Counted from the stretch's first letter, positions 46,588 through 64,000 are shown. The stretch: 64,000 nucleotides of DNA from an uncultured Erysipelotrichaceae bacterium (GCA_902801795.1 CADCJQ010000009.1:3452-67451), one strand, 5' to 3'. Notes: generated by a model not told the origin, from the sequence alone. Made by a program: numbers and translations.

Positions 46588-47016
46588 TTACTTCATTGTA
46601 TCAAGAATATCATTGTATATGCTATCGCTATTTTCAGCAATAATATATATTAAGTAATTACCTAATTCTTTTTCCAATCTATTTTCTAATATTTCTAATC
46701 TCTTAGGTGAATATGATGCATTAAAATCCTTCACTTTAGCGAAATAATCTTTCATCTCATTTTTAACATTAGTCTTTTTAGATGTTTTAATTATTGCATA
46801 TAAATCCCCTTCCTCATTTTGTTTAAAAGTCCATTCATCCATATTATTAAGATCTAGTCCATATGCATCGGTTAATGTACTATCTGGAATAGCAACCATT
46901 CCATTTAAACTTTTTTCAATTGCTTCTTTCGCAGCAACCATATCTAGTTGTTTATCTGTCTTACCACAACCAACTAAAAATAAAAACATAAATAAAAACA
47001 AAGCTAACTTTTTCAT
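46588..47016 (-). CDS. DUF4358-like lipoprotein
   Basis: Lipobox FLVGCG. 142 aa. It is the last gene of the MBOAT-DHHW-SGNH cluster, where this family typically occurs. Confidence 0.55.
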   Translation of the reverse strand: MKKLALFLFMFLFLVGCGKTDKQLDMVAAKEAIEKSLNGMVAIPDSTLTDAYGLDLNNMDEWTFKQNEEGDLYAIIKTSKKTNVKNEMKDYFAKVKDFNASYSPKRLEILENRLEKELGNYLIYIIAENSDSIYNDILDTMK

Positions 47017-47020
47017 ATTA

Positions 47021-48259
47021 TCATTCCTCCTTTATAGCATGTGTTTTAAAATAATTTTTTACTACTTTATGACCTTCAGATGAAAGGTGATATCCATCAT
47101 TTTTAATATATTTGGAATTCACATAACCATCCTTTCCTTTCAATACACTTTGAACATCTATAAATTTTAAACCATGTTCATGCGCCATTTCTAATATATA
47201 GAAATTATATTTATTGATAGTATCTTGACTAAATTTCACATTATCTAATTTTTTAGCAATTGGATATATTGAAATTAAAATTATTTCTGTATCAGGATTT
47301 ATTTCCTTAATTTTATCAAGTAACTCATTAGCATTTTTTAAAAATACATCTTCTTTTATCCAACTTGTACTAAATGAACCAAAATTAATAACCATTCTTT
47401 TAGGTTTATATTTTTTTACAGCATCCAATAGTTTAATTTTAATCCCAAGTCCATATATATTTAATTCCTTAGTAAACATTGATTCAGCATGTAAACATGG
47501 AATAGCCCAGGCATTTATACCTTTTAAATAACCTTGTGTATAAAAATACATTGTATTAGAATCTCCGACAAATTTAAAAGAATCAAAATAATTATTTCCC
47601 ATATCTTTTGTTTCAGAAAGATATGCATCTTGATACCACCCATCTAATGTATATTCTTCAAGATTCATCTGTGTTGGACGAAGTCTTTCAACTTTGACAT
47701 TTCTTTTAATACTCGTACTATTCCCAGATTTATCAGTTACTTCGTAAGTAACTAAATAATCTCCCAATTTTGTTATATCTATATTATTTGTTACCTGAAC
47801 GTTATTTGTTATATCACCATCCATATTATCAGTAGCGGTAAATCCTGGCTCTATATATTTTGTATTAATTGTAACTTCATAATTTTCACCACCTGTTAAT
47901 TTTATTTTAGGACAAGATAAATCCTTTATCTCAACAGTTCTATTAATTGTTTTAGTGAATATCCATAATTTATATTTATATTTAACATGGTATGTTCCAA
48001 CTTCTTCTTTAATATCATTGGTTACTTCAATTTCCTTTGTTATATCATCAGAAAGCAGATTTCCACTAAAGCCAGGCTCACTATATTTTTCTCCATAGTC
48101 TAAAATCATCATTTTATCACCATATAATTCAATATTAATCAAAAAATATGGCAATGAAATCAGTACAATACCCAACAAAAATAAAATAAAACATAAAAAT
48201 GACTTTTTCTTTAATTTTAACTTTTTTCTTTTAATTCTTCTTTTTTTTAATTCATCCAT
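47021..48259 (-). CDS. membrane-anchored SGNH/GDSL hydrolase with Ig-like (DUF5011-type) domains
   Basis: N-terminal TM segment. EPGFTATDNMDGDITNNVQV is Ig-like. FVGDSN matches SGNH block I and DGYHLSSEGH matches block V (DxxH). Confidence 0.7.
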   Translation of the reverse strand: MDELKKRRIKRKKLKLKKKSFLCFILFLLGIVLISLPYFLINIELYGDKMMILDYGEKYSEPGFSGNLLSDDITKEIEVTNDIKEEVGTYHVKYKYKLWIFTKTINRTVEIKDLSCPKIKLTGGENYEVTINTKYIEPGFTATDNMDGDITNNVQVTNNIDITKLGDYLVTYEVTDKSGNSTSIKRNVKVERLRPTQMNLEEYTLDGWYQDAYLSETKDMGNNYFDSFKFVGDSNTMYFYTQGYLKGINAWAIPCLHAESMFTKELNIYGLGIKIKLLDAVKKYKPKRMVINFGSFSTSWIKEDVFLKNANELLDKIKEINPDTEIILISIYPIAKKLDNVKFSQDTINKYNFYILEMAHEHGLKFIDVQSVLKGKDGYVNSKYIKNDGYHLSSEGHKVVKNYFKTHAIKEE

Positions 48260-48269
48260 CTTCTACCTA

Positions 48270-48341
48270 CTATAAATATATTATATCACATTATTTTAAT
48301 TGATACTATAAATATATTATATCACATTATTTTAATTGATA
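48270..48341. repeat. exact 2 x 36-bp tandem duplication in the DHHW-SGNH intergenic region
   Basis: ctataaatatattatatcacattattttaattgata occurs twice back to back. Each copy carries TGTGATATAAT (an extended -10) on the minus strand. Copy 2 includes the DHHW stop codon. Confidence 0.9.
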
Positions 48342-49414
48342 CTCAAAATTCCTAAATCATCATCTATTGTGCCAATATTATATATAAATAATATATTACT
48401 AATATTATTATTTCTAATGTAATCACTAATACTATTCTTATAATACCTGGGGTCTATAACATGAATTTTACTATAATGATTTGCAATAAGCGGAATAAAA
48501 CAATTAGCATAGCTATCTTTAATAATCAATATTTCATTATCCTCAACTTTGGTATTTACAATTGTAATTAATGATTGATTTCCATTTAAAAAATATGAAT
48601 ATTTATCTTTCTCATTTAAAAACTTTTCGTTATACAACGAGTACACATCTGAATCAGAATATTCTACTTGATATATATTATTATCAATTACTCTCTCAAT
48701 TATATCATGTTCAATTGTGTTATCTAGAATTTTAGAATATAAAGTTCCATAAAAATTTTCTGATACTATTTGAAAAGAGTAATTAACTGGTAAAATTCCA
48801 TTTTTGTTACAATATTCTAGATATGCATAATATGCACCTCTGGTCGTCCAATGGTGATCTGTTCGATAGTATATATATTGATTATTATTTTTTAACAAAA
48901 TATCGGAAACATCAATATAATTACTTTTAAGATTATTCTTAAAATAATCGATTGTTTCATATTCATCATAATTCAAATTATATTTAGGTAATTTATTTTG
49001 TAATATATATGAACTTGTTGGAACTAACATAAAATTGTATTTTATCTTAGGATTAGCTTCCATAAATCTATTCACAACCTTTACAATTTTTTCATTGTTT
49101 GTTGGTTTTTGATATTCTTCAATTAAATAATTATCGGCAGCATAATATAATTCATTTTGTCTTTTTACCCCAATTTTTTTAAACAAATTAGTTTTAAAAT
49201 TCAAAAATTCTTCCCGAAAGGGAAAATGATCGGCAATATAATTTGACATATTAGTCATAAAATTTCCATTAAATATACTTTCTATACTAAAAATAGGAAA
49301 TTTTTGCAAATATCTATTTTCATTAGCAGAAAATTCTTTCTTAGGTAAAACAATTGTCAAAATCAATAAAAACACAATAATAATCTGAATTAAAAAATCA
49401 ACAATTCTTTTCAT
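48332..49414 (-). CDS. DHHW-family protein (AlgX/AlgJ-like acyl-transfer partner of MBOAT)
   Basis: N-terminal TM segment and the motif YYRTDHHWTTRGAYYAY. Confidence 0.8.
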   Translation of the reverse strand: MKRIVDFLIQIIIVFLLILTIVLPKKEFSANENRYLQKFPIFSIESIFNGNFMTNMSNYIADHFPFREEFLNFKTNLFKKIGVKRQNELYYAADNYLIEEYQKPTNNEKIVKVVNRFMEANPKIKYNFMLVPTSSYILQNKLPKYNLNYDEYETIDYFKNNLKSNYIDVSDILLKNNNQYIYYRTDHHWTTRGAYYAYLEYCNKNGILPVNYSFQIVSENFYGTLYSKILDNTIEHDIIERVIDNNIYQVEYSDSDVYSLYNEKFLNEKDKYSYFLNGNQSLITIVNTKVEDNEILIIKDSYANCFIPLIANHYSKIHVIDPRYYKNSISDYIRNNNISNILFIYNIGTIDDDLGILSIN

Positions 49415-49423
49415 TAAATCCTC

Positions 49424-50797
49424 CTAAAATCTAAAATATAAAAATGGATTGTAACTATCTCCAATCAATGATGATACAGTAACAATAAATAAGAAAACAT
49501 AGATGATTATTAATAAAACTTTTGTAATAATATTACTTCTCATTTTGCTAAAAATTGGTGTACTAAACGTAATACCAAAAATATAAAATAATAAATAATT
49601 GCTAATGAAAAAAATAAATTTATTATCAATAATTGTATTATTTATAAACATACTTTTTAAATAAACGATTCCAGTTTCAATATCTTCAAATGCAAAAATC
49701 GTCCATCCGACTAGAATTAAAATAATTGCATAAATATGCTTTAACAATTTAGGCATTTTACTTATAATATTCTTTAAAACATATTTTTCTATTAATAATA
49801 TTATACCAAAATATAGTCCCCATAAAATATAGTTCCAGCTTGCACCATGCCAAATTCCTGTTAGAAGCCATACTATTATAATATTTCTCATATTTATTAT
49901 CTTATTACATCTATTGCCACCTAATGGAATATATACATAATCTCTAAACCAGCTAGATAAAGTCATATGCCATCTTCTCCAAAAGTCAGTTATGCTAATT
50001 GCAATATATGGATAGTTAAAATTATCCGGATACTTAAATCCTAGCATTTCACCTATTCCTTTAGCCATATCACTATACCCAGAAAAGTCATAATATATTT
50101 GAAGAGCAAAGGAAATAATTCCCAACCAAGCGGTTAATAAAGAAATATCACTTATATCCTTTGTTATTAATGAAAAAATATATCCAATATTATTAGCCAA
50201 TAAAACTTTTTTAAATAAACCTGTTAAAAATTTAAAAAAGCCATTATAAAAATCCTCTTTTGTAATCGTTCTATTTTTTAAATCATTACTTACTTCATCA
50301 TATCTAACAATCGGCCCAGCCACAAGTTGCGGAAACATTGATACATAGGTCAAAAAATTTAAAAATGTATCCGGTACAATATTTTTATCTTTATATACAT
50401 CAATAGTATAGCTCATAGTTTGAAATGTAAAAAAACTTATTCCTAACGGGAGTGCTATATTTAATGTCTCAATATCTAAACCTAGTAAATTTAAATTATT
50501 AATAATAAAATTACAATATTTGAATACTCCCAAAAGTAATATATTTAAAATAATAATTATAATAAAATACTTTTTTCTTTTTTGAGGATAACTAATCTTT
50601 CTAATAATTTTACTACCATAATAATTTAACATTGATGAAAATAATAAAAGTAAAATATATATTGGCTCTCCCCAACTATAGAATAATAGACTAAAAAAAA
50701 GTAAAACCTTATTCTTATATTTAAATGGTACTACGTAGTATAATAACAAAAAAACTGGCAAGAAAAAAAACAAAAAAAACAAACTACTAAAAAGCAT
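49424..50797 (-). CDS. MBOAT-family membrane O-acyltransferase (AlgI/DltB-like)
   Basis: Polytopic membrane protein with the motif FWRRWHMTLSSWFRDYVYIPLGGN, which contains the catalytic His. Confidence 0.88.
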   Translation of the reverse strand: MLFSSLFFLFFFLPVFLLLYYVVPFKYKNKVLLFFSLLFYSWGEPIYILLLLFSSMLNYYGSKIIRKISYPQKRKKYFIIIIILNILLLGVFKYCNFIINNLNLLGLDIETLNIALPLGISFFTFQTMSYTIDVYKDKNIVPDTFLNFLTYVSMFPQLVAGPIVRYDEVSNDLKNRTITKEDFYNGFFKFLTGLFKKVLLANNIGYIFSLITKDISDISLLTAWLGIISFALQIYYDFSGYSDMAKGIGEMLGFKYPDNFNYPYIAISITDFWRRWHMTLSSWFRDYVYIPLGGNRCNKIINMRNIIIVWLLTGIWHGASWNYILWGLYFGIILLIEKYVLKNIISKMPKLLKHIYAIILILVGWTIFAFEDIETGIVYLKSMFINNTIIDNKFIFFISNYLLFYIFGITFSTPIFSKMRSNIITKVLLIIIYVFLFIVTVSSLIGDSYNPFLYFRF

Positions 50798-50822
50798 ATC
50801 TATCTCCCAAATTAATTATAAC

Positions 50823-50950
50823 AAAAATGACTAAAATTATCTAGTATTTAGTCATTTTTTACATTTAGTTTCATTACTTAGTTTTTTTACTTTGATTGCT
50901 TCTTGTACCACTTTTTTTCTTAAGAATAATCAAGACTAAAATAACTCGTT
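50823..50950 (-). repeat. cassette-boundary module, copy 0 (directly upstream of the MBOAT gene)
   Basis: The minus strand reads, in order: gttattttagtcttg; a core (…acaagaagcaatcaaagtaaaaaa…); the hairpin aatgactaaa/tttagtcatt plus a T-run; gTTATAATt; gggag; ATG. Confidence 0.7.
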
Positions 50951-50982
50951 ATGTTTTATTTACTAAATTATTATTAAAAAAA

Positions 50983-51687
50983 TCACTTCTTTTTATTTAA
51001 CTTCCAAATGACCAAAGATAAACAAAATGTTATACCCAACATAGATGGTACGACTAATATTGTTCTTAATATACCATTTTGAGCAAAAGAATACCAGTCA
51101 TTTCTTAAGGATACTACTCCATTTTTCATATTTATTAAAAGATTAATTGCATAATATATTTCTTACAAAAAAGTTGGTAATAATCCATAAAAAGTATATT
51201 TAAATTTTATAATATTAGTTTTTTCAAAAATAACATAATTTAATATACTCATAACTGGAATTATCAAATGAAAAAATAAATAACTATTTTTTAATAAAGA
51301 AATATGACCACCTCTAGATGTAAATCCAAATATAGCAAATACTACAAAAAATGTTAAACTTACAGCAACAGTAGCAACCATTTTAAAAATGTAATATATT
51401 AATGGAATTTCTTTTTTTTTCCCTCTTAAAATTTGATATTCCCTATTTGCAAAAACAAATGAAACAATTCCCATAAATATATTAGATTGAACAGTATAAT
51501 AACTAAAAATTGGTATTCCTACTAATTCAGGATATGGTTCATAACCATACATAAATTTAAATCCCATAATCGACATAATTATTGCATTTATAGTCAAAAT
51601 AGATATTATTACATTAATAACCAAAGATATTTTCATTTTTTTATTATTCTTTTTTTTAATATTATCTATTTTTTTCACAACTGACAC
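50983..51687 (-). pseudogene. Pr6Pr/FAR-17a-like membrane protein interrupted by one in-frame TAA
   Basis: The ORF 51163..51687 ends ...YGLLPTFL-TAA. The same frame then continues for 59 more codons (EIYYAINLLINMKNGVV...VIWKLNKKK) to TGA at 50983. YYTVQSNIF is typical of the family (from recall). Confidence 0.5.
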
Positions 51688-51706
51688 CTCTATTTTAATT
51701 ATAAAA

Positions 51707-51797
51707 TAAAAGACTAGATAATTCTAGTCTTTAGTCATATTTTATTCTTGCTTTCCTGCTTTAATTGCAGCTTGCACAACTGCTCCATTCGGGATGG
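51707..51797 (-). repeat. cassette-boundary module, copy 1
   Basis: The minus strand reads, in order: ccatcccgaatggagcagttgtgcaagctgcaattaaagcaggaaagcaagaaTAA; atgactaaagactag-aattat-ctagtctttt; atttTATAATt; agaggtg; GTG. Confidence 0.7.
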
Positions 51798-51903
51798 TGA
51801 AATTCATACTGTTTTAAGTACTTTTTTATATTTTAAACATTCCTTCTATTACAGTTGTATATACTAAATATCTAATTGGTACTATTAAAACTAAAACAAC
51901 TTT

Positions 51904-52611
51904 TTACATCATTATCTTTTTTATATAATCTATATTGTTTTTTTCATCTTTTTCCAATTTTAAAACAAAATTAAACTTATCAACTTCTGTACTTAGAAAG
52001 AAATCTTTTTCTGGAAATACATCTTGCTGATTCACATCAAAAAATTTACTTCCAGAGGTATACTTTAATTTTTCAATTTCTTCAGTCAAATCCATCGGTT
52101 TGTTTTCTAAAAGACTTTTTATATAATATGCACATAAATTGTCTTCTTCAGTTTGACTTTTTGCTTCAAGTCCCATGCAAACCAATGAAATATCATTATA
52201 ATTATTTTGTTTTATATAATTTGCAATTGCCTTTGCATTAACTAAGCTACCAGTTAAAATAACATCAGCATTACTTGCGTTTGCAATTCCTTGAGTTCCA
52301 GCACTTGTTGTGTGTACAATTGTTTTGCCATTAAAATCTATATTTTCAATTTGTGAAGGAGAATTACCATAATCAAATCCAGGCATAATTTGGCCATGTC
52401 TTTCCCCTACTAAAATGATATTAGGATCTTCTTTTTTATAATTATATGCTATTTCAGAATCTCCTACAGGAATAATCTTATCAGCACCATTATTCATTAA
52501 ATATGCTTCTACAGTAAATGCTCTAAAAACATCAATAATAACTGTTAATCCAGTTGCTTGCTTTGCCCCCTCAACCATGTGTAATATTTTTATGTTCATC
52601 ATAATCACCAA
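51904..52611 (-). CDS. 2-phosphosulfolactate phosphatase (ComB) family protein
   Basis: VIIDVFRAFT near the N-terminus and ~230 aa in length. The likely real start is MNIKILH (about 52599). Confidence 0.6.
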   Translation of the reverse strand: MVIMMNIKILHMVEGAKQATGLTVIIDVFRAFTVEAYLMNNGADKIIPVGDSEIAYNYKKEDPNIILVGERHGQIMPGFDYGNSPSQIENIDFNGKTIVHTTSAGTQGIANASNADVILTGSLVNAKAIANYIKQNNYNDISLVCMGLEAKSQTEEDNLCAYYIKSLLENKPMDLTEEIEKLKYTSGSKFFDVNQQDVFPEKDFFLSTEVDKFNFVLKLEKDEKNNIDYIKKIMM

Positions 52612-52625
52612 TTAAATTATATCAC

Positions 52626-52737
52626 AAAAAAGACTAGTTTTACCTAGCCTTTTAATTATTTATATTAATTATTCTTTGCTTTTATTGCAGCTTGTGCAGC
52701 AGTCTCATTAGGGATGACCAAGACTAAAATGACTTAT
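52626..52737 (-). repeat. cassette-boundary module, copy 2
   Basis: The minus strand reads, in order: taagtcattttagtcttggtcatccctaatgagactgctgcacaagctgcaataaaagcaaagaataaTTAA; the hairpin aaggctag-gtaaaa-ctagtctttttt; gTGATATAATt; ggtga; ATG. Confidence 0.7.
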
Positions 52738-52747
52738 TAATACATTA

Positions 52748-53803
52748 TTATAAATGTCTAAATTCTCCAAAGTTATATGTCTTTCCAGTAGCATTTGTTA
52801 TATTATAAATGTTACCAGTCTTTGTATCTATAGCTTTATTATTGTTCATAGTTATAGAATGTTCTTCAAGTTCAATAACATCAAGGGAAGAATCTAATGT
52901 TTTTTTACCATTTTCATCTTTTTTATACATTGCATCAGTTGGTGTTAAGTAAGATATATTCCCATCCTTTATAGAATTGAAAATAATATCTCCACTGTGA
53001 TTTTTATATTTTTCTATATCAGGTCCAGACAATGTTGTATCATGGACTACATCAGCTATAAATTCACCTAGTAACTTTCCATTATCTGTAGTTATCAAAA
53101 GACTTGCTTGAGGTTTATCTACAATTCCAGCTGGTAAAGAAATAGCAACATAATCTTTATCTGTACCTTTATGAATTGAAGAAGTCATATCCCATTCAAA
53201 AAATTCATAATTAACTCCAGCATCTTCTTCCTCATCAAATTCTTTTAACATTGTTATACCATATCCTTCAAGATGATAAATAGCATCTCTTACACAATTA
53301 AGTCCAAGAGTATCATTTCCTACATAAACATTGTAATAAATATAATATGGTCCTTTTTCTTGTTGTTTTGAACTTCCTGAAGTTTGAACTCTTATAACTA
53401 CTTCACTCCCATTTACATTGACATAATTAGTCTCAAGCCCTAATGGTAAATCATCAGTATATTCTTTTTTTATTTCATGTATAGTTAATGAATCATTATT
53501 TGTTTTAGAATTATTATTTGTATTATTATTATTTATGTTATTTTGATTATTATTGTTATTATTTGTATTATTATTATTTATGTTATTTTGATTATTATTG
53601 TTATTATTTGTATTATTATTTATGTTATTTTGATTATTATTGTTATTATTTGTATTATTATTATTTATGTTATTTTGATTATTATTTGTATTATTTTGAT
53701 TATTATTGTTACTTGATGAATTATTTGTAGTATTATTTCCACAACCTGTCATAATAAATACTGTTATTAAAATAAATAAACTTAATATTACTCTCTTTAT
53801 CAT
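52748..53803 (-). CDS. lipoprotein with Asn-rich tandem-repeat linker
   Basis: Lipobox IMTGCG, followed by ~80 aa of N/Q/T/I repeats and then a ~250-aa globular region. Confidence 0.7.
   Translation of the reverse strand: MIKRVILSLFILITVFIMTGCGNNTTNNSSSNNNNQNNTNNNQNNINNNNTNNNNNNQNNINNNTNNNNNNQNNINNNNTNNNNNNQNNINNNNTNNNSKTNNDSLTIHEIKKEYTDDLPLGLETNYVNVNGSEVVIRVQTSGSSKQQEKGPYYIYYNVYVGNDTLGLNCVRDAIYHLEGYGITMLKEFDEEEDAGVNYEFFEWDMTSSIHKGTDKDYVAISLPAGIVDKPQASLLITTDNGKLLGEFIADVVHDTTLSGPDIEKYKNHSGDIIFNSIKDGNISYLTPTDAMYKKDENGKKTLDSSLDVIELEEHSITMNNNKAIDTKTGNIYNITNATGKTYNFGEFRHL
53511..53712 (-). repeat. tandem 45/45/42-bp coding repeats (Asn-rich)
   Basis: The unit tattattattatttatgttattttgattattattgttattatttg repeats from 53521, followed by degenerate partial units. 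It encodes TNNNNNNQNNINNNN-type repeats. Confidence 0.85.
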
Positions 53804-53883
53804 TTCATTTCTCCTTTACTTTAATAAGTATATCATATTTTTTATTATTTAGTTTATTAAACTATTTACTTTACTATTAATAA

Positions 53884-54026
53884 AAAAAGACTAAGTTGTG
53901 TGGTGCTTAGTCTTTGTATTTAGTTTTTATTAATTCTTTTTTGCTTTAATTGCGGCTTGTCAGTAATCTCAAATAGAAATACCAAAACCTACGATTAAGC
54001 GTACGACTAAGACTAAAATGACTTAA
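53884..54026 (-). repeat. cassette-boundary module, copy 3 (abuts the serine recombinase stop codon)
   Basis: The minus strand reads, in order: ttaagtcattttagtcttagtcgtacgc...caagccgcaattaaagcaaaaaagaatTAA; the hairpin aaagactaag-caccacacaa-cttagtcttttttt. This is the longest copy and contains two in-frame stops. Confidence 0.7.
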
Positions 54027-54031
54027 TTTTT

Positions 54032-55654
54032 TTATTTTTTTGTTGTTTTGTACTCTGTTATAAAACAGTCTTCCTTTCCTTTCCCTTCTATTTTTAATTT
54101 TATTGTTTCATCCATAAAGTTTAATTTCCATTCAAAGTAATCTTTGTGGACAATTATTTTTTCTACAATCTCATCTATTAACTTTTCATCTATTCCATTA
54201 TAATTTATATCTAATAATTTGCGAACACTTTTTCTAGCATTTTCTCTTCTAACTTCTATTGGTTCTAAACGCGCAAGTTTCTTCTCATATTCTTCTATAT
54301 CCATTTTAAATCTTTCTATTCTTTCTTCTGTCATTTTTTGAAATCTTTCAAAAGATTCTAAATCTACAATTTCATCCAAATACATATCAAGTGTTTTATC
54401 TAACTTGGCATTTTCATTTTCCACAAATTTACTTAATCTATTTATTTCCTTTTTTATATTTTTATCTTCCAATTCATCTATCTTTGATCCTTCTAAAAGT
54501 ATTTTAGTAAGTTCCTCTCGATTATCTTCATTTTGAATTAATCCTTTAAAAACTGCTTCTGCCATATATAATAATTTCCATTCTTGTACATCCATTATTT
54601 CACATGGTACATAATCATAACTATATATTCTTTCTTTTGGATGTAATTTTTTATTATAACAAATATAAGCATATGTTACACTATCTTTATTCCTGTGATA
54701 AACTCTTCTATTAAATGCTGATCCACATTCACATACAAGCTTTTTACTCCAAATATTTTTAGGAACACCTCTTGCTTGTCTCATACCAGCTCTAATAGGT
54801 TTTGAATGACTATCCAATATCATTTGAGCTTTTTCAAAATCTTCCTTGGATATTATTGGTTCATGTCTTCCTTCAATAATTACTTTTTCAACCTGACCTG
54901 TATTCTTAACTCTTTTTTGTTCTAAATAATCAGGTACATATTGTTTTCTATATATCATTGTTCCACAATAGAATGGATTTCTTAATACTCCAGTTAAATA
55001 TGAAGCTTTCCAACTGTGTAATCCAGTAGATGTTTCATATCCTTTTCTTTCTAACTCTCGTGCTATTGCAGTTGTTCCTTTACCATTTATATATTCTCTA
55101 AATATATATCTTACTATTTCAGCTTGTTCTTCATCAATGACCATATTATTTTTATCTATTTTATCATATCCTAAAATATTTCCTGTTCCATAAAATATTC
55201 CATTTTCAAATGATATTTGCATTCCGGCTTTTACTCTTAACGAAGTTTTTTTACTTTCATTTTGAGCAAGTGTAGCCATTAAAGATAATTTTAACTCTCC
55301 ATCTTCATCCTTAAATGTCCAAATATTATCTTCAGTAAAAAATACTTCAACTCCAAGTTTCTTTAAATTTCTAGTTTCCTGTAAAGTATCAACTGTATTT
55401 CTAGCAAATCTGGATACTTCACGTGTTACAATTAAATCAAATTTACCACGTTTTGCATCTTCCATCATTCGCATAAAACTTTTTCTTTTCTTAGTAGATG
55501 TACCTGTAATTCCTTCATCAATGTATTTTTCAACCAATATCCAATCAGGATGTTTTTTAAATTGTTCATCATAATATTGAATCTGATTTTCAAGTGCTGC
55601 CAATTGAGCTTCATGTTCTGTTGAAACTCTAGCATATATAGCAACCTTTCTCAT
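54032..55654 (-). CDS. large serine recombinase
   Basis: N-terminal resolvase domain VAIYARVSTEHE (catalytic Ser) and TREVSRFARN. The recombinase domain is followed by a Cys-rich zinc ribbon (CECGSAF...CYNK) and a coiled coil. Start moved to MRKVAIY, which is preceded by agaggtgataaaa. Confidence 0.9.
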   Translation of the reverse strand: MRKVAIYARVSTEHEAQLAALENQIQYYDEQFKKHPDWILVEKYIDEGITGTSTKKRKSFMRMMEDAKRGKFDLIVTREVSRFARNTVDTLQETRNLKKLGVEVFFTEDNIWTFKDEDGELKLSLMATLAQNESKKTSLRVKAGMQISFENGIFYGTGNILGYDKIDKNNMVIDEEQAEIVRYIFREYINGKGTTAIARELERKGYETSTGLHSWKASYLTGVLRNPFYCGTMIYRKQYVPDYLEQKRVKNTGQVEKVIIEGRHEPIISKEDFEKAQMILDSHSKPIRAGMRQARGVPKNIWSKKLVCECGSAFNRRVYHRNKDSVTYAYICYNKKLHPKERIYSYDYVPCEIMDVQEWKLLYMAEAVFKGLIQNEDNREELTKILLEGSKIDELEDKNIKKEINRLSKFVENENAKLDKTLDMYLDEIVDLESFERFQKMTEERIERFKMDIEEYEKKLARLEPIEVRRENARKSVRKLLDINYNGIDEKLIDEIVEKIIVHKDYFEWKLNFMDETIKLKIEGKGKEDCFITEYKTTKK

Positions 55655-55744
55655 TTTTATCACCTCTACTAAAAAATATCATTTTTAATTAATAATATAT
55701 AATGTACGATTTTTGCATAAAAAAGAAGTATTTCTACTTCTCCA

Positions 55745-58306
55745 TTACACACTTGACTTTGTTCTGCTCAATCTATAACATATTGGACATCCTGTTCCAT
55801 TCTTTCTAGCATATATTTTTGTATGCCATTCATGTCCTTTTTCACACTTCCACCATACATTTTTGCTAGACCCAGCAGAATAATTTAAAGGACTATCATT
55901 ACCATTTTTTTCATAATTCCATTCTTTAACTAGCTCTGGGTTAGTTGTGCCCAAATCATTATATCCTAAAAGTGTTTTTTTATTAGAGCAATATGGACAT
56001 CCTCTTCCATTTAATCTATTGGCAATTGTTGCATCATATGAATGATTTAATTTACATCGCCACCATATTTTATATTTGGAAGAACCACTAGTAATGCAAT
56101 CTGGTTTAATAGTGTTTTTATCATAATCCCATTCATCTAATAACTCTTTGTGTTCTGTAGCAAAATCATTAATTCCTTTTAATAATTTTGATGGTTTTTT
56201 TCTATTAATTACACCAGCACAATTTGGACATCCACTACCCATACATCTAGCAAATACTTTTGCTTGCCAAGAATAATTACATTTTTTGCATTTCCACCAT
56301 ATAGTGTTATGTGCACCTTTTGATACTTTATCTGGTGTGATATTATTTTTTTCGTAATCCCATTCTTCAGTCAAATAAGGATGTGTAATTAAAATCGAAT
56401 CCCTATTTTCTCCTTTTTGATATAAAGTATATATTTCGTTAAAATCTCTTTCAACATCAACATCATATTTTCTAACATTCAAATACTTCAACAATTCTTT
56501 TATTACATCATTCATATACGAATGATCACTTGTAAGATTTCTAATGATAAAATCTATTGATGTACTATTTAATTTCGGTAATTCAGGCTCTCTTATTCTA
56601 ATTAATTTTATACCTAATGATGAACATAATTTATTTTTTGCTAAATCTTTTTGAACGCTTTTATGATAATATTGTCCATCATATTCAATTCCCAAATTTA
56701 ATTTTGGAATAAAAATATCAATTTCTTTTCTATTTATTTTATAACTCTCTATTAAATCGAAATTGTATTTTTTCAAATAATATACTATTGATTTTTCTGA
56801 TATCGAAGTTTGTCTACTTGAATTACATATTGGACAAAAATGTTTTTTAGTTCTACTTACAATCGATGCATACCATTCATGCCCTTTGTCACACTTCCAC
56901 CATGCTTTTTTAGTTGAACCGGCTATTATTTCTGTTGGTTTTATTTTGTTCTTATCATAATCCCATTCTTTCAATAAATCAGGATTGGTTGTAGCTAAAT
57001 CATTAAATCCCTTTAGTAAACGCCTATTTGAACAGTACGGACAACCATTGCCTCCATTTTTCACTCTATTACAAACAGAAGATCTCCATTCATGCCCTTT
57101 GTCACACTTCCACCAAACAATAATACCTGAATTTCTTGTTAATTCATCTGGTTTAATTTTATTCTTCTTATAATTCCACTCGCGTGCTAGTATGGGATTA
57201 TGTGAATAAAAATCATTAAATCCTTTCAAAACTTTTTGACTAGCGCAATATGGACATCCTTTACCTTTCATTCTATTTGCAACGCTAGATATATATGAAT
57301 GTCCCAAATTACATTTCCAATAATACTTTGAATTTGATCCTTTTATAACTGTTGTTGGTTCAACTTTATTCTTTTCATAATCCCATTCTTTTAATAATTG
57401 TGGATAAACTGAACCGAAATCATTAAAACCACTTAATAATCTTTTATTGGCGCAATATGGGCATCTATTCAATGTTTCGTGATTATTACGACTATGTGGT
57501 GATGCATACCATTCATGTCCCTTATCACACTTCCACCATACTTTTTTATCAGAAAGAAGAGCAATATTACTAGGACTTATTTCTTTATTCTTTTCATAAT
57601 CCCATTCTTTTAATAATTCTGGTGCTCTTGTAGCTAAATCATTTATTCCAGATTTCACATATACTCGATTATTATTCATACTTGAACATTTTTTACAAAT
57701 AGTTGTACGAGATTTAGCACAAATTTGTGTTTCCCATTCCTTACCACAAATTGAACACTTCCACCATACTCTTTTATTAGATTTGGCCATGAATTGCTCT
57801 GGTTGAAGAGGATAATTTTTATCATAATCCCATACATCAACTACTTCAGGAAATACTGCAATTAAAGATTTTGATTTATCCTTTACTTTTGCATTAAAAT
57901 CACCTGTTACTCTGCTTGCGCAATTTGGACATCCATGTCCTTTACTTCTCACATATAATGATGTTTCCCATTCAAAATTACATTTTTTGCATTTCCACCA
58001 TACTTTTATAGGAGAATTTGCAATTATTTCATTTGGTTTAATTCTATTTTTATTATAATCCCATTCGTTTAATATATCATTATGGCAAGTTGCAAAATCG
58101 TTGAAGCCAATTAACAGTTCTCTATTGGAGCAATATGGACACTTTTGCTTTTTTTTTGAAAATTGGTATATTTGTTGCTTCCACTCATGTCCTTTGTCAC
58201 ATTTCCACCAAACAATTTTTCCAGATCCAACTGTATAATTATTTGGACTATCATTCAAATTCTTCTCATAATTCCAATATTTTAATATATCCTTATTGGA
58301 TTCCAT
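55745..58306 (-). CDS. multi-zinc-ribbon (DUF4379-like, ~10 repeats) protein with embedded Vsr/DUF559-like PD-(D/E)XK nuclease domain
   Basis: A repeated unit occurs 7 times before and 3 times after a central block: W(D/N)YEKN...VWWKC.KGHEW....R....CP.C.N...L.GFND. The central block is KEIDIFIPKLNLGIEYDGQYYHK...LGIKLIRIRE. Confidence 0.7.
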   Translation of the reverse strand: MESNKDILKYWNYEKNLNDSPNNYTVGSGKIVWWKCDKGHEWKQQIYQFSKKKQKCPYCSNRELLIGFNDFATCHNDILNEWDYNKNRIKPNEIIANSPIKVWWKCKKCNFEWETSLYVRSKGHGCPNCASRVTGDFNAKVKDKSKSLIAVFPEVVDVWDYDKNYPLQPEQFMAKSNKRVWWKCSICGKEWETQICAKSRTTICKKCSSMNNNRVYVKSGINDLATRAPELLKEWDYEKNKEISPSNIALLSDKKVWWKCDKGHEWYASPHSRNNHETLNRCPYCANKRLLSGFNDFGSVYPQLLKEWDYEKNKVEPTTVIKGSNSKYYWKCNLGHSYISSVANRMKGKGCPYCASQKVLKGFNDFYSHNPILAREWNYKKNKIKPDELTRNSGIIVWWKCDKGHEWRSSVCNRVKNGGNGCPYCSNRRLLKGFNDLATTNPDLLKEWDYDKNKIKPTEIIAGSTKKAWWKCDKGHEWYASIVSRTKKHFCPICNSSRQTSISEKSIVYYLKKYNFDLIESYKINRKEIDIFIPKLNLGIEYDGQYYHKSVQKDLAKNKLCSSLGIKLIRIREPELPKLNSTSIDFIIRNLTSDHSYMNDVIKELLKYLNVRKYDVDVERDFNEIYTLYQKGENRDSILITHPYLTEEWDYEKNNITPDKVSKGAHNTIWWKCKKCNYSWQAKVFARCMGSGCPNCAGVINRKKPSKLLKGINDFATEHKELLDEWDYDKNTIKPDCITSGSSKYKIWWRCKLNHSYDATIANRLNGRGCPYCSNKKTLLGYNDLGTTNPELVKEWNYEKNGNDSPLNYSAGSSKNVWWKCEKGHEWHTKIYARKNGTGCPICYRLSRTKSSV

Positions 58307-58554
58307 AGTAATCACCACTTCTAATATTATATCATAGAAAAAAGTAGATTTTTACATCTACTTAGTTAGTTCGCAATATCTTAATATTCCGATTATTATT
58401 TATTTAGATAATACTTACCATCTTTTGTTTTTACTAAAACCTTTTGCTTAATCAATCTTTCATTTATTTTATTAAATCCATTAGGATTTGATTTTTTCTT
58501 ATTAATGGAATTGGTGGAAAAAATGCCATATTACTCAACTCTCCTTCAATAACT

Positions 58555-58608
58555 ATTATACCACACAAAAACTGATTCTCATCCGTTCTGTATATCTTAA
58601 TCTTACAA
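58555..58608 (-). repeat. 54-nt direct repeat (terminator hairpin plus extended -10), copy 1
   Basis: attataccacacaaaaactgattctcatccgttctgtatatcttaatcttacaa. The minus strand contains ...cagaacggatgagaatcagttttTGTGTGGTATAAT. Confidence 0.85.
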
Positions 58609-59256
58609 TTAACCACTTATAAATGGTATTCTTATTAAAAATGCTAAGATCAATCCTATTATTAAACTGATTCCTATATTCATTGGTTTCTTATATAAAA
58701 CTATACAAGTAGCTATAAATGTAAGTGTGTATAAAATTCCTTTAAAATCAAAATACCACATTCCTATGCTAAAACAACTTGCAAACATTACAAACATTAT
58801 TAAACTACCAATTATAATTGATAATTTATTTTCACTTTTACTATACCAACATATAAATGCAAGTATTGGGGAAATTAAAGTAAATCCGTACCATATCATC
58901 ATATAGTTTTTAGGGTTAAATCCACTAAACATAATTGTATATAAATGGTAACTAACACACATTCCTGCAAAGAACAATAATACATTAATACTTGCTCTTA
59001 ATGGTGATTTGCTAAATACTGAAATAGTAATAGCTATTAATAGCCAAATTGCCATTTCAGAGAAGAAATTATTTAAATCTAGTCTTTCAAAAATACTCAT
59101 CCACCTTATGGAATTATCAATAGTCAAGTTATCTAACCATTTAGAAAGCATTCCTAAAACTATTCCAAGTAAAAAGATTAATATAGTATTAATTATTTTA
59201 TTTTTAAGTTTTAAATTATTATCTACTTTTCTAGTTCTATCTAAAAACTCTTTCAT
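58609..59256 (-). CDS. polytopic membrane protein (unknown function)
   Basis: Start moved to [10 protein letters not shown]. The upstream part of the ORF-track frame runs through the promoter/terminator repeat. About 6 hydrophobic segments. Confidence 0.55.
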
Positions 59257-59274
59257 ACTCATCACTCTCATATA

Positions 59275-59327
59275 ATTATACCACACAAAAACGGATTTAA
59301 TCCGTTCTATATATCTTAATCTTACAA
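59275..59327 (-). repeat. 53-nt direct repeat (terminator hairpin plus extended -10), copy 2
   Basis: attataccacacaaaaacggatttaatccgttctatatatcttaatcttacaa. The minus strand reads aacggattaaatccgttttTGTGTGGTATAAT, about 12 nt before the MKEF start region. Confidence 0.85.
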
Positions 59328-63823: not shown

Positions 63824-64000
63824 ATGAAAGAAAAGACTGATTTAAGGGTTATAAAAACTAAAAAAATTCTGTTTAATACTTTACTAGAACTTATGAAAAA
63901 TAAAAATTTTGAGAAAATAAAAATATCTGATATATGTGAGGAATCACTAATAAATCGCTCTACTTTCTATGCTCATTATGAAGATAAATATGAACTATTG
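63824..64000 (+). CDS. TetR/AcrR-family transcriptional regulator (3'-partial)
   Basis: ATG at 63824 follows tgaggcg. The sequence MKEKTDLRVIKTKKILFNTLLELMKNKNFEKIKISDICEESLINRSTFYAHYEDKYEL is the TetR HTH signature. It is divergent from the MMPL operon and runs off the window. Confidence 0.8.
   Translation, partial: MKEKTDLRVIKTKKILFNTLLELMKNKNFEKIKISDICEESLINRSTFYAHYEDKYELL

Follow-up and report, generated by a model that had tools for sequence, protein, structure and literature searches.

Repeated gene-end modules beside a large serine recombinase gene of an uncultured Erysipelotrichaceae bacterium: probable junctions of elements stacked at the 3′ end of ppdK

In staphylococci, composite islands of the staphylococcal cassette chromosome type (SCC/SCCmec) are found at the 3′ end of rlmH (orfX), where the large serine recombinases (LSRs) CcrAB and CcrC integrate them. 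In streptococci, the site-specific accretion of integrative and conjugative elements and integrative and mobilizable elements is accompanied by cis-mobilizable elements (CIMEs), i.e. recombinase-less segments that are bounded by attachment (att) sites and lie beside a recombinase-bearing element at the same target; they probably originate by decay, and their mobilization in trans may occur. According to a published report (PMC11005914), PvCTn-like conjugative transposons of Bacteroidota use the codons GCN CAR GCK GCH RTH of ppdK, the gene of pyruvate phosphate dikinase, as their host attachment site (attB), with regeneration of the stop codon. Here we analyze a 64,000-nt stretch of DNA from an uncultured Erysipelotrichaceae bacterium (GCA_902801795.1, CADCJQ010000009.1:3452-67451), referred to as the window, to which all positions apply unless a locus is named. 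Four direct homologous modules, read on the minus strand, separate three unrelated genes in the region between the stop codon (54032-54034) of an LSR gene, designated rec, and the start (50797) of an operon headed by an MBOAT gene. It is probable (about 80%) that LSRs integrated elements in tandem at the ppdK 3′ end, that this region is the distal portion of the resulting array, and that the modules are leftovers of the attachment-site junctions. So understood, the locus is an instance of a known, SCC-like process, represented by a new family of small LSR elements of uncultured low-GC Bacilli that target ppdK and leave scars at their junctions.

The likeness to SCC lies in the LSR-driven integration into the terminal codons of a housekeeping gene whose end is preserved by element-borne sequence, in the direct repeat at every junction, in tandem stacking, and in the persistence of recombinase-less pseudo-elements within the array. 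In other respects the two systems differ. The target is ppdK instead of rlmH; each element has a single LSR, which is not orthologous to Ccr (the best PDB and phage matches are ≤40% identical); the elements are small (6-12 kb), those of relatives often bearing restriction-modification or defence-type cargo; and the elements reside in uncultured, low-GC Bacilli of gut and rumen metagenomes. The repeats are long (~110-200 nt), because a terminator is part of each of them; a −10-like box follows directly downstream. With the PvCTn-like transposons, as described in the available part of PMC11005914, the elements have in common the same ppdK codons, imperfect direct repeats at attL and attR, and a stop codon regenerated within a few residues. 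However, those transposons are large and conjugative, carry a type IV secretion system and belong to another phylum, and no tandem single-gene units are described in that part of the text. The same report was the only precedent for ppdK as attB found in the literature, in which nothing was found on ppdK together with a serine recombinase, nor on a serine recombinase together with DUF4379, a domain encoded by the element that carries rec.

Between consecutive cores of the modules lie three units of 0.87-1.27 kb (core-to-core sizes of 1265, 920 and 869 nt), each with one gene and none with a recombinase, beside a recombinase-bearing element. Such units fit the sequence definition of CIMEs; however, the streptococcal systems use tyrosine integrases and identical core repeats, whereas here an LSR and single-gene units are found, and the attP/attB/attL/attR rules of LSRs make mobilization in trans less straightforward. 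An array of single-gene units beside a site-specific recombinase, the content of which varies between relatives, also recalls integrons, and a previous interpretation made from the nucleotide sequence alone (the sequence-only reading) had called the region integron-like. This label does not hold, since the only recombinase is of the serine type, there is neither a tyrosine recombinase IntI nor any attC-type site folded from single-stranded DNA, the units are not promoterless but are separated by terminators, each with its own −10-like box, and the junction repeats come from the 3′ end of a target gene.

Each module contains, in the same order, a left arm belonging to the upstream unit, the crossover site, a former ppdK tail with a stop codon, a ppdK-type terminator, a −10-like box and a ribosome-binding site (RBS) of the GGTGAT type. 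Copy 3, adjacent to rec, has a left arm at 53960-54024 (the feature extends to 54031), which represents the P arm at the right end of the rec-type element and carries a 16-nt word, AAGTCATTTTAGTCTT, at 54009-54024. Its 18-nt core (53942-53959) and pseudo-ppdK tail (together 53930-53959) start with the crossover octamer CAAGCCGC (53952-53959), continue with AATTAAAGCAAAAAAGAATTAA and read QAAIKAKKN*, and its ppdK-type terminator hairpin (53886-53915; AAAGACTAAG…CTTAGTCTTT, then a T-run) has a folding energy of -9.1 kcal/mol. In copy 2 (52626-52735), a left arm of another type (type B; 52695-52735, word at 52720-52735) precedes the core (52677-52694; with tail 52665-52694), which reads QAAIKAKNN*, and a hairpin (52628-52653); the −10-like box (52616-52625) is just outside the module range. 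Copy 1 (51700-51902) has a long left arm (51775-51902), a core (51757-51774; with tail 51742-51774) reading QAAIKAGKQE*, a hairpin (51709-51732) and a −10-like box (51698-51706). It had been recognized from the sequence alone, but its extent had been underestimated, as it reaches 51902 and includes a degenerate word, AAGTTGTTTTAGTTTT, at 51887-51902. Copy 0 (50815-50947), situated directly before the MBOAT operon, is the most degenerate module: its core CAAGAAGCAATCAAAGTA (50888-50905) has 4 mismatches and reads QEAIKVKK…, and it is accompanied by a type-B left arm (50906-50947), a hairpin (50823-50859) and a −10-like box (50815-50823). All these features are on the minus strand.

Statistical analysis confirmed that the four direct copies are real. 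The 16-nt word gave 4 matches at ≤2 mismatches, compared to 0.21 expected, and the 18-nt core 3 matches at ≤3 mismatches, compared to 0.19 expected. A module profile (nhmmer) recovered every window copy at E = 1e-24 to 1e-33 (copy 0 at E = 6e-24), with no match elsewhere in the 64-kb window or in ~2.3 Mb of unrelated control loci gathered for other purposes; the modules are thus not a scattered intergenic repeat (REP/MITE-like), an eventuality that had been raised earlier. Terminator-like hairpins were also more frequent than expected (3 versus 0.5), and all four module hairpins have folding energies of -9 to -12 kcal/mol and a U-run directly behind them. In contrast, the TATAAT-type boxes proposed together with these hairpins are indistinguishable from chance in this DNA of ~25% GC (29 promoter-like sites versus 29.4 in shuffled sequences).

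The sequence-only reading had recognized in the cores the diverged 3′ ends of a gene absent from the window in intact form. Relatives were found by a search with the window recombinase protein (7,889 homologs at E ≤ 1e-20, the closest being 97, 82, 81 and 80% identical), and their contigs were fetched and searched in six frames for the pseudo-C-terminus (numbers beginning with L denote the related or control contigs and loci compared with the window). This analysis revealed that QAAIKA is the true C-terminus of the 875-877-aa product of ppdK, …SPFRVPIARLAAAQAAIKAGQK (short form …AAAQAAIKAGQK). Intact ppdK is located directly upstream of elements with 80-81%-identical recombinases (L084-L086, L088 and L089), the far ends of which carry pseudo-ends, and elements with recombinases 67-81% identical to that of the window directly follow intact ppdK in related metagenome contigs. 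In L084-L086 and L088-L089, ppdK is directly followed by a short arm, made up of GGACAAAAATAG, a small hairpin, a terminator and TTGTTGGAAT, then by a gene encoding a 153-aa weakly helix-turn-helix (HTH)-like protein, variable cargo, the recombinase gene, sometimes one extra gene (HEPN-AbiU2 or PD-T7-3) and, finally, a pseudo-ppdK end with the architecture of the window modules; the cargo of the relatives includes NERD, DUF4379 nucleases and, in L090, a type IIG restriction-modification enzyme. The gene itself stays intact with element-supplied tails, and pseudo-tails of the form QAAIKAxxx* are present at every junction.

Only the portion from the core onward (QAAIKA…stop) is derived from the gene, and it is for this portion that the earlier idea of diverged gene ends stands; the arms show no significant alignment to the ppdK coding sequence. 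The preceding “VILVLV” stretch, which had been included in the gene end, was tried as ppdK coding sequence and rejected, since the TCACCAT they have in common lies in another frame and the alignments of the arms gave no support. It is part of the element arm, and its reading frame is incidental.

The position of the crossover emerged from the homolog P0016, which is 67% identical to the window recombinase. An identical ~6-kb element encoding this protein (with genes for 158-aa and 385-aa proteins, an N6/N4 methyltransferase, an ASCH protein and the LSR) is inserted directly after ppdK in five or six genomic backgrounds, with different flanking genes on both sides. The element-identical sequence stops at …GTTAAGCTCACAAGC (…CACAAGC) on the right and starts at GCCATTAAAGCGCATAAAAACTAG (GCCATTAAAGCG) on the left. 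Host ppdK sequences vary up to CAAGC and the displaced tails vary after CAAGCYGC, still reading QA(A/E)IK(A/S)xx(x)* and followed by a terminator. This alignment places the crossover within the 8 bp CAAGCYGC, i.e. the first 8 nt of the previously noticed core and the ppdK codons Q-A-A, ~25 nt away from the point after GGGATG that had been proposed; the conserved arm motifs lie 27-54 nt further out, beyond the canonical LSR site. Canonical LSR sites comprise an attP of ~50 bp and an attB of ~40 bp, with a 2-bp central dinucleotide and imperfect dyad half-sites. In agreement with this position, loci L087 and L088 carry the same rec-type element, located after ppdK in L088 and after another LSR (rec2, 580 aa) and a pseudo-end in L087, and the identity between them begins exactly at ACAAGCTGC. 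The stem of the copy 3 terminator recurs after displaced host ppdK ends in L176 and L177. The SCC-like accretion with surrogate gene ends that had been suggested from the sequence alone has thus acquired its missing gene, a located crossover and an identical element at the same site in several hosts, and the 80-81%-identical homologs are also found after ppdK.

A mechanism that would account for these observations can be outlined. Strand exchange by an LSR, within CAAGCYGC, would join the attP of an element to the ppdK codons …A-A-Q-A-A-I-K-A…. The left arm of the element (P′) would supply replacement codons QAAIKAxxx, a stop codon and a ppdK-type terminator, so that ppdK would stay intact, while the previous ppdK end would be displaced downstream; repetition of this event would stack elements. 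An internal junction would then be composed of the right-end arm of the upstream unit, the crossover, the former ppdK tail with its stop and terminator, and the −10-like box and RBS of the next unit. In the window, copy 3 would represent the right junction of a ~12-kb rec-type element (extending from the 153-aa HTH gene to the DUF4379 nuclease and recombinase genes), and copies 2, 1 and 0 the junctions of three small recombinase-less units with the lipoprotein, ComB and decaying membrane protein genes, respectively. Copy 0 is probably the oldest or the original ppdK end, abutting the MBOAT operon. The activity of the window recombinase and the order of events are inferred, and the small units may be either decayed elements or cis-mobilizable units moved in trans.

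The rec gene (54032..55663, minus strand) encodes a protein of 543 aa from a GTG codon or 540 aa from an ATG codon, with the catalytic-serine motif YARVST. It matches the Pfam families Resolvase (5e-28) and Recombinase (4e-27), which are followed by a Cys-rich segment, CECGSAF…ICYN…VPCE, without a separate zinc-ribbon match in Pfam. Its best PDB matches are the N-domain of a Clostridioides difficile conjugative-transposon recombinase and then the SPbeta integrase, and phage integrases are ≤40% identical. The extent of the element was deduced from locus L186, which is part of the same contig as L001, belongs to the genome of the window and reaches past the window end. From its start, it contains a split rec2-type LSR gene (273 + 262 aa), a junction (arm, CAAGCTGCCATTAAAGCG, P′), genes for a 153-aa protein, a 182-aa HTH protein, TetR, MMPL, and proteins of 712, 215 and 69 aa, the DUF4379 gene and the recombinase gene. 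This gene order indicates that rec belongs to a ~12-kb element with its left junction ~2 kb past position 64000. A rec2 element followed by a rec element is also found in L087 and L090, and, by comparison with relatives, ppdK would have to lie further upstream of the split LSR gene, off the contig. The split gene occupies L186 1-1582, i.e. ~2-4 kb beyond window position 64000; rec2 and rec proteins are ~52-56% identical overall and ~80% identical in the first 175 residues. The conserved 153-158-aa weakly HTH-like protein encoded at the left end of every rec-type element is a candidate recombination directionality factor.

The rec element also carries a gene (55745..58318, minus strand) whose 857-aa product combines ten DUF4379 treble-clef zinc fingers with a REase_MTES_1575/DUF559-like nuclease domain (Pfam) and had no PADLOC match. 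In relatives, this position is occupied by variable cargo, some of it of the defence type (a type IIG restriction-modification enzyme, a type II methyltransferase); NERD and YaaC proteins at the same position gave a weak PADLOC match at most, or none. In L084, L090, L176 and L173, the genes that flank the recombinase gene on either side often gave defence-type matches, namely to a type IIG restriction-methyltransferase (E = 2.5e-213), PD-T7-3, HEPN-AbiU2, NERD and a type II methyltransferase accompanied by an ASCH protein. Directly before the recombinase gene (window 55664-55744; also L173, L084, L088, L090, L174 and L176) there is a conserved block composed of a hairpin GAAGTAnnAATACTTC, a T-run and AAATCGYACATTAAA…AAAAATGATA…TAGTAGAGGTGAT. 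Even elements whose recombinases are 97% identical have exchanged the cargo upstream of the block, which marks it as an internal cargo-exchange boundary. Scans of IMG/VR with the word-plus-core pattern, the recombinase, the reconstructed attP of the P0016 element and a second motif (see below) gave nothing or chance-level matches; hence, they provided no evidence that the elements are phages, and no free attP was found.

The content of the three units agrees with the gene assignments made from the sequence alone, which also comprised the LSR and the MBOAT operon, in all but one respect. Unit 1 (52748..53803, minus strand, as for the following genes) encodes an Asn-repeat lipoprotein of 351 aa with no Pfam match or known family. 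Its Asn-rich repeat (window 53450-53750; L001 7090-7190), composed of units of 9-45 nt, is intact in the window, and the 167-aa gene call in L001 results from an assembly gap; the difference in repeat length was accordingly rejected as a strain difference, because a run of Ns (scaffold gap) is present in L001. Unit 2 (51904..52602) encodes a 232-aa protein of the 2-phosphosulpholactate phosphatase (ComB) family (Pfam, 1e-46). Unit 3 (50983..51687) encodes a membrane protein without a Pfam family, which leaves its former “Pr6Pr-like” label unsupported; its reading frame is interrupted by a TAA stop codon (51163-51165) also present in three other assemblies, and it is a probable pseudogene. The flanking operon MBOAT - DHHW/AlgX - Ig-like/GDSL - DUF4358 (46588..50797, minus strand; Pfam) forms the distal boundary of the array and is not part of it, being present, with identities of up to 56%, in GTDB genomes without the array. 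The MBOAT protein was uninformative as bait, since its best matches in GTDB (56% identity) and in metagenomes (49%) came from genomes without the array, and exact look-ups returned the same strain only, at 100% nucleotide identity.

Comparison with the closest relatives revealed differences in unit content, as had been predicted. In L173 the recombinase is 97% identical, the recombinase and arm together show 93.5% nucleotide identity and the arm alone is 95% identical, and genes for an 852-aa protein, a 517-aa protein and YaaC replace the DUF4379 gene upstream. The arm is joined in L173 to a right half nearest to window copy 2 (86%, versus 80% for copy 3), followed by an Asp/Glu racemase gene and then by a left arm 85% identical to that of window copy 1. 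Compared with L173, the window has an extra unit, that of the lipoprotein (absent from the L173 array), bounded by cores, and ComB in place of the racemase. Locus L190 contains a core–ComB–arm–core unit with a 96%-identical ComB, followed by a different unit. More generally, the right half of copy 2 has 84-86% identity with the modules that precede the racemase (L173) and ComB (L190) genes, and the left arm of copy 1 is 82-85% identical to its counterparts in the same two loci. Similar small recombinase-less units occur in L090, L084, L177, L173 and L190; that of L177 (an HTH gene and a gene for a 272-aa protein) lies between ppdK and the P0016 element, the position expected of a later arrival.

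The left arms of the modules fall into two classes. Type A arms, which close rec-type elements on the right (window copy 3, the L173 counterpart mentioned above, L088, L084, L090 and L176, where the word reads AAGTCACTTAGTCC), consist of the word, ~52 nt of non-coding filler and the core; in the last four loci the homologous word-bearing arms place the word 52-54 nt from the core. Type B arms follow recombinase-less units; the word is 27 nt from the core in window copies 2 and 0 and at L090 14411, and an internal expansion is present in window copy 1, L173 and L190. An assignment of the type B arms to the rec2 LSR was tried and rejected: TTTAGTC and ACTGTGGYA are common, by eye, to these arms and the rec2 arm of L090, but the alignment scores are within the range of shuffled sequences.

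Several points weigh against integration at ppdK as the origin of the array. No ppdK was found in the window (tblastn) or on the 26-kb contig of the same genome, and the linkage of the window array to ppdK is deduced from its relatives. For the element of the window itself, the evidence consists of its right junction and the 97%-identical relative. The left arms of copies 2, 1 and 0 are unlike the arm adjoining rec, and to none of them could a recombinase be assigned with statistical support; rec may or may not have produced the three downstream junctions. The word is located 27-54 nt from the crossover, outside the canonical 50-bp attP. Canonical LSRs recombine only attP with attB, and stacking would need an occupied ppdK end (attL) to serve as attB, which is plausible. 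ComB is an ordinary chromosomal gene in L191 (10001-10690, after the AsnRS gene) and L193 (10001-10699, after a Q_salvage gene), with homologs that form a smooth series of 75-99% identity, so that unit genes are not necessarily classical cargo; in L191 it is preceded by the same AGACTAGGTAAGACTAGTCT terminator and promoter, without a core.

A different account, which we consider unlikely, treats the recombinase-less units as mobile cassettes. Each would comprise a single gene with an upstream terminator and −10-like box and a conserved 40-130-nt right arm, would circularize to a minimal attP (arm, CAAGCYGC and pseudo-ppdK tail) and would be shuffled in trans by resident LSRs. The unit differences between relatives are compatible with such trans-mobilization, but are not proof of it, and the location of the recombinase-less L177 unit on the ppdK-proximal side of the LSR element is indirect evidence.

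It is also unlikely that the modules act mainly as portable homology, through which DNA of related arrays swaps or adds genes by homologous recombination, with the recombinase-less units never having moved site-specifically. As homology anchors the modules would offer 100-200 nt at ~65-88% mutual identity. Homologous arms do surround unlike genes, namely ComB (window, L190) and the racemase (L173), and the type B arms, to which no cognate recombinase could be assigned, as well as the coreless ComB gene of L191, fit such exchanges. However, the mosaic breakpoints are found at the 8-bp crossover and not at variable positions, the modules are clearly derived from LSR junctions, and sequences with 65-85% identity over ~100 nt are a poor substrate for homologous recombination.

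An attenuator function had also been proposed, in which an upstream UAGUCUU competes with the 3′ arm of the terminator for the AAGACUA arm; the TAGTCTT of the word is recurrently identical to the terminator 3′ arm. Duplexes between the word and the 5′ arm of -8 to -9 kcal/mol are possible, near the -9 to -12 kcal/mol of the terminators, and the complementarity recurs in L176 and L177. Nevertheless, the minimum free energy folds of all four modules retain the terminator, with the word paired elsewhere, and an Rfam search of 50700-54100 gave no match even at E = 1. Moreover, L179 and L183 have the same arm, word included, joined to host terminators that are unrelated, the distance between word and terminator ranges from ~110 to 200 nt, and the position of the word follows element ends and not genes, all of which makes this explanation very improbable. 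Local segmental duplication of an intergenic terminator-promoter region, unrelated to the recombinase, is hardly credible: the four repeats are direct, in one orientation and within 3.2 kb, but their identity in the window (53-67% for the left parts, 66-76% for the right parts) is far below that to positional counterparts in other genomes (81-95%), they carry ppdK C-terminal codons and sit at element ends beside ppdK in other species, the genes between them are mutually unrelated, and the differences in unit content between relatives argue against a static duplication.

Apart from the ppdK-derived junctions, the rec-type element contains three copies of a second junction motif, (A)ATCGnAAGATTAAGATAT(T), at 59302-59323, 58583-58604 and 58369-58388 (minus strand), to which no recombinase could be assigned. 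The motif is partly palindromic (CGCAATAT-TAAG-ATATTGCG) and brackets the gene of the 215-aa membrane protein and a small open reading frame (ORF), and two of the copies are followed by a near-identical terminator and promoter. It also occurs at L186 3199, L084 12152 and 13046, and L174 400 and 6168, and flanking sequences change between strains exactly at this motif (L186 versus L189 on the left, the window versus L187 on the right); the bare 10-mer ATTAAGATAT has only 5 occurrences in 2.34 Mb of control loci. At ~58488 (58464-58616), between two ATTAAGATAT sites, the window has 76 nt fewer than L186 and L187 inside the 69-aa ORF, which is consequently truncated in the window strain. In L174 (400-617) and L084 (13046-13290), a GC-richer arm of ~230 nt with four GxCCaCG…CGG repeats lies between a ATTAAGATAT site and a ppdK-type core; this arm, at the right end of a third class of unit, could correspond to a structured RNA or to an array bound by protein. 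Elsewhere in the window, the PGK RNA motif (RF03040; 9488-9577, minus strand; 64 bits versus a gathering score of 50.8) is the sole Rfam family.

If the recombinase-less units did prove to be trans-mobile cassettes, the ppdK locus of gut Bacilli would be a serine-recombinase-based gene-capture platform, functionally parallel to integrons, and the second site system, ATCGnAAGATTAAGATAT, might work alongside it, reshuffling blocks inside elements. The reading preferred here, stacking of LSR elements at the ppdK end, has several consequences. The target ppdK is named and the crossover bounded to 8 bp for an abundant LSR clade without prior characterization, which yields attB/attP pairs that genome-engineering screens can test. 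In annotation, a short pseudo-C-terminus within repeated terminator-promoter modules can flag integration scars even if the target gene is off the contig. Since the small elements of relatives often carry restriction-modification and other defence-type genes, the turnover of such genes in uncultured bacteria of the rumen and gut can be sought in these arrays, and the ppdK end is an integration hotspot in low-GC Bacilli, at codons that are also used by conjugative transposons of Bacteroidota.

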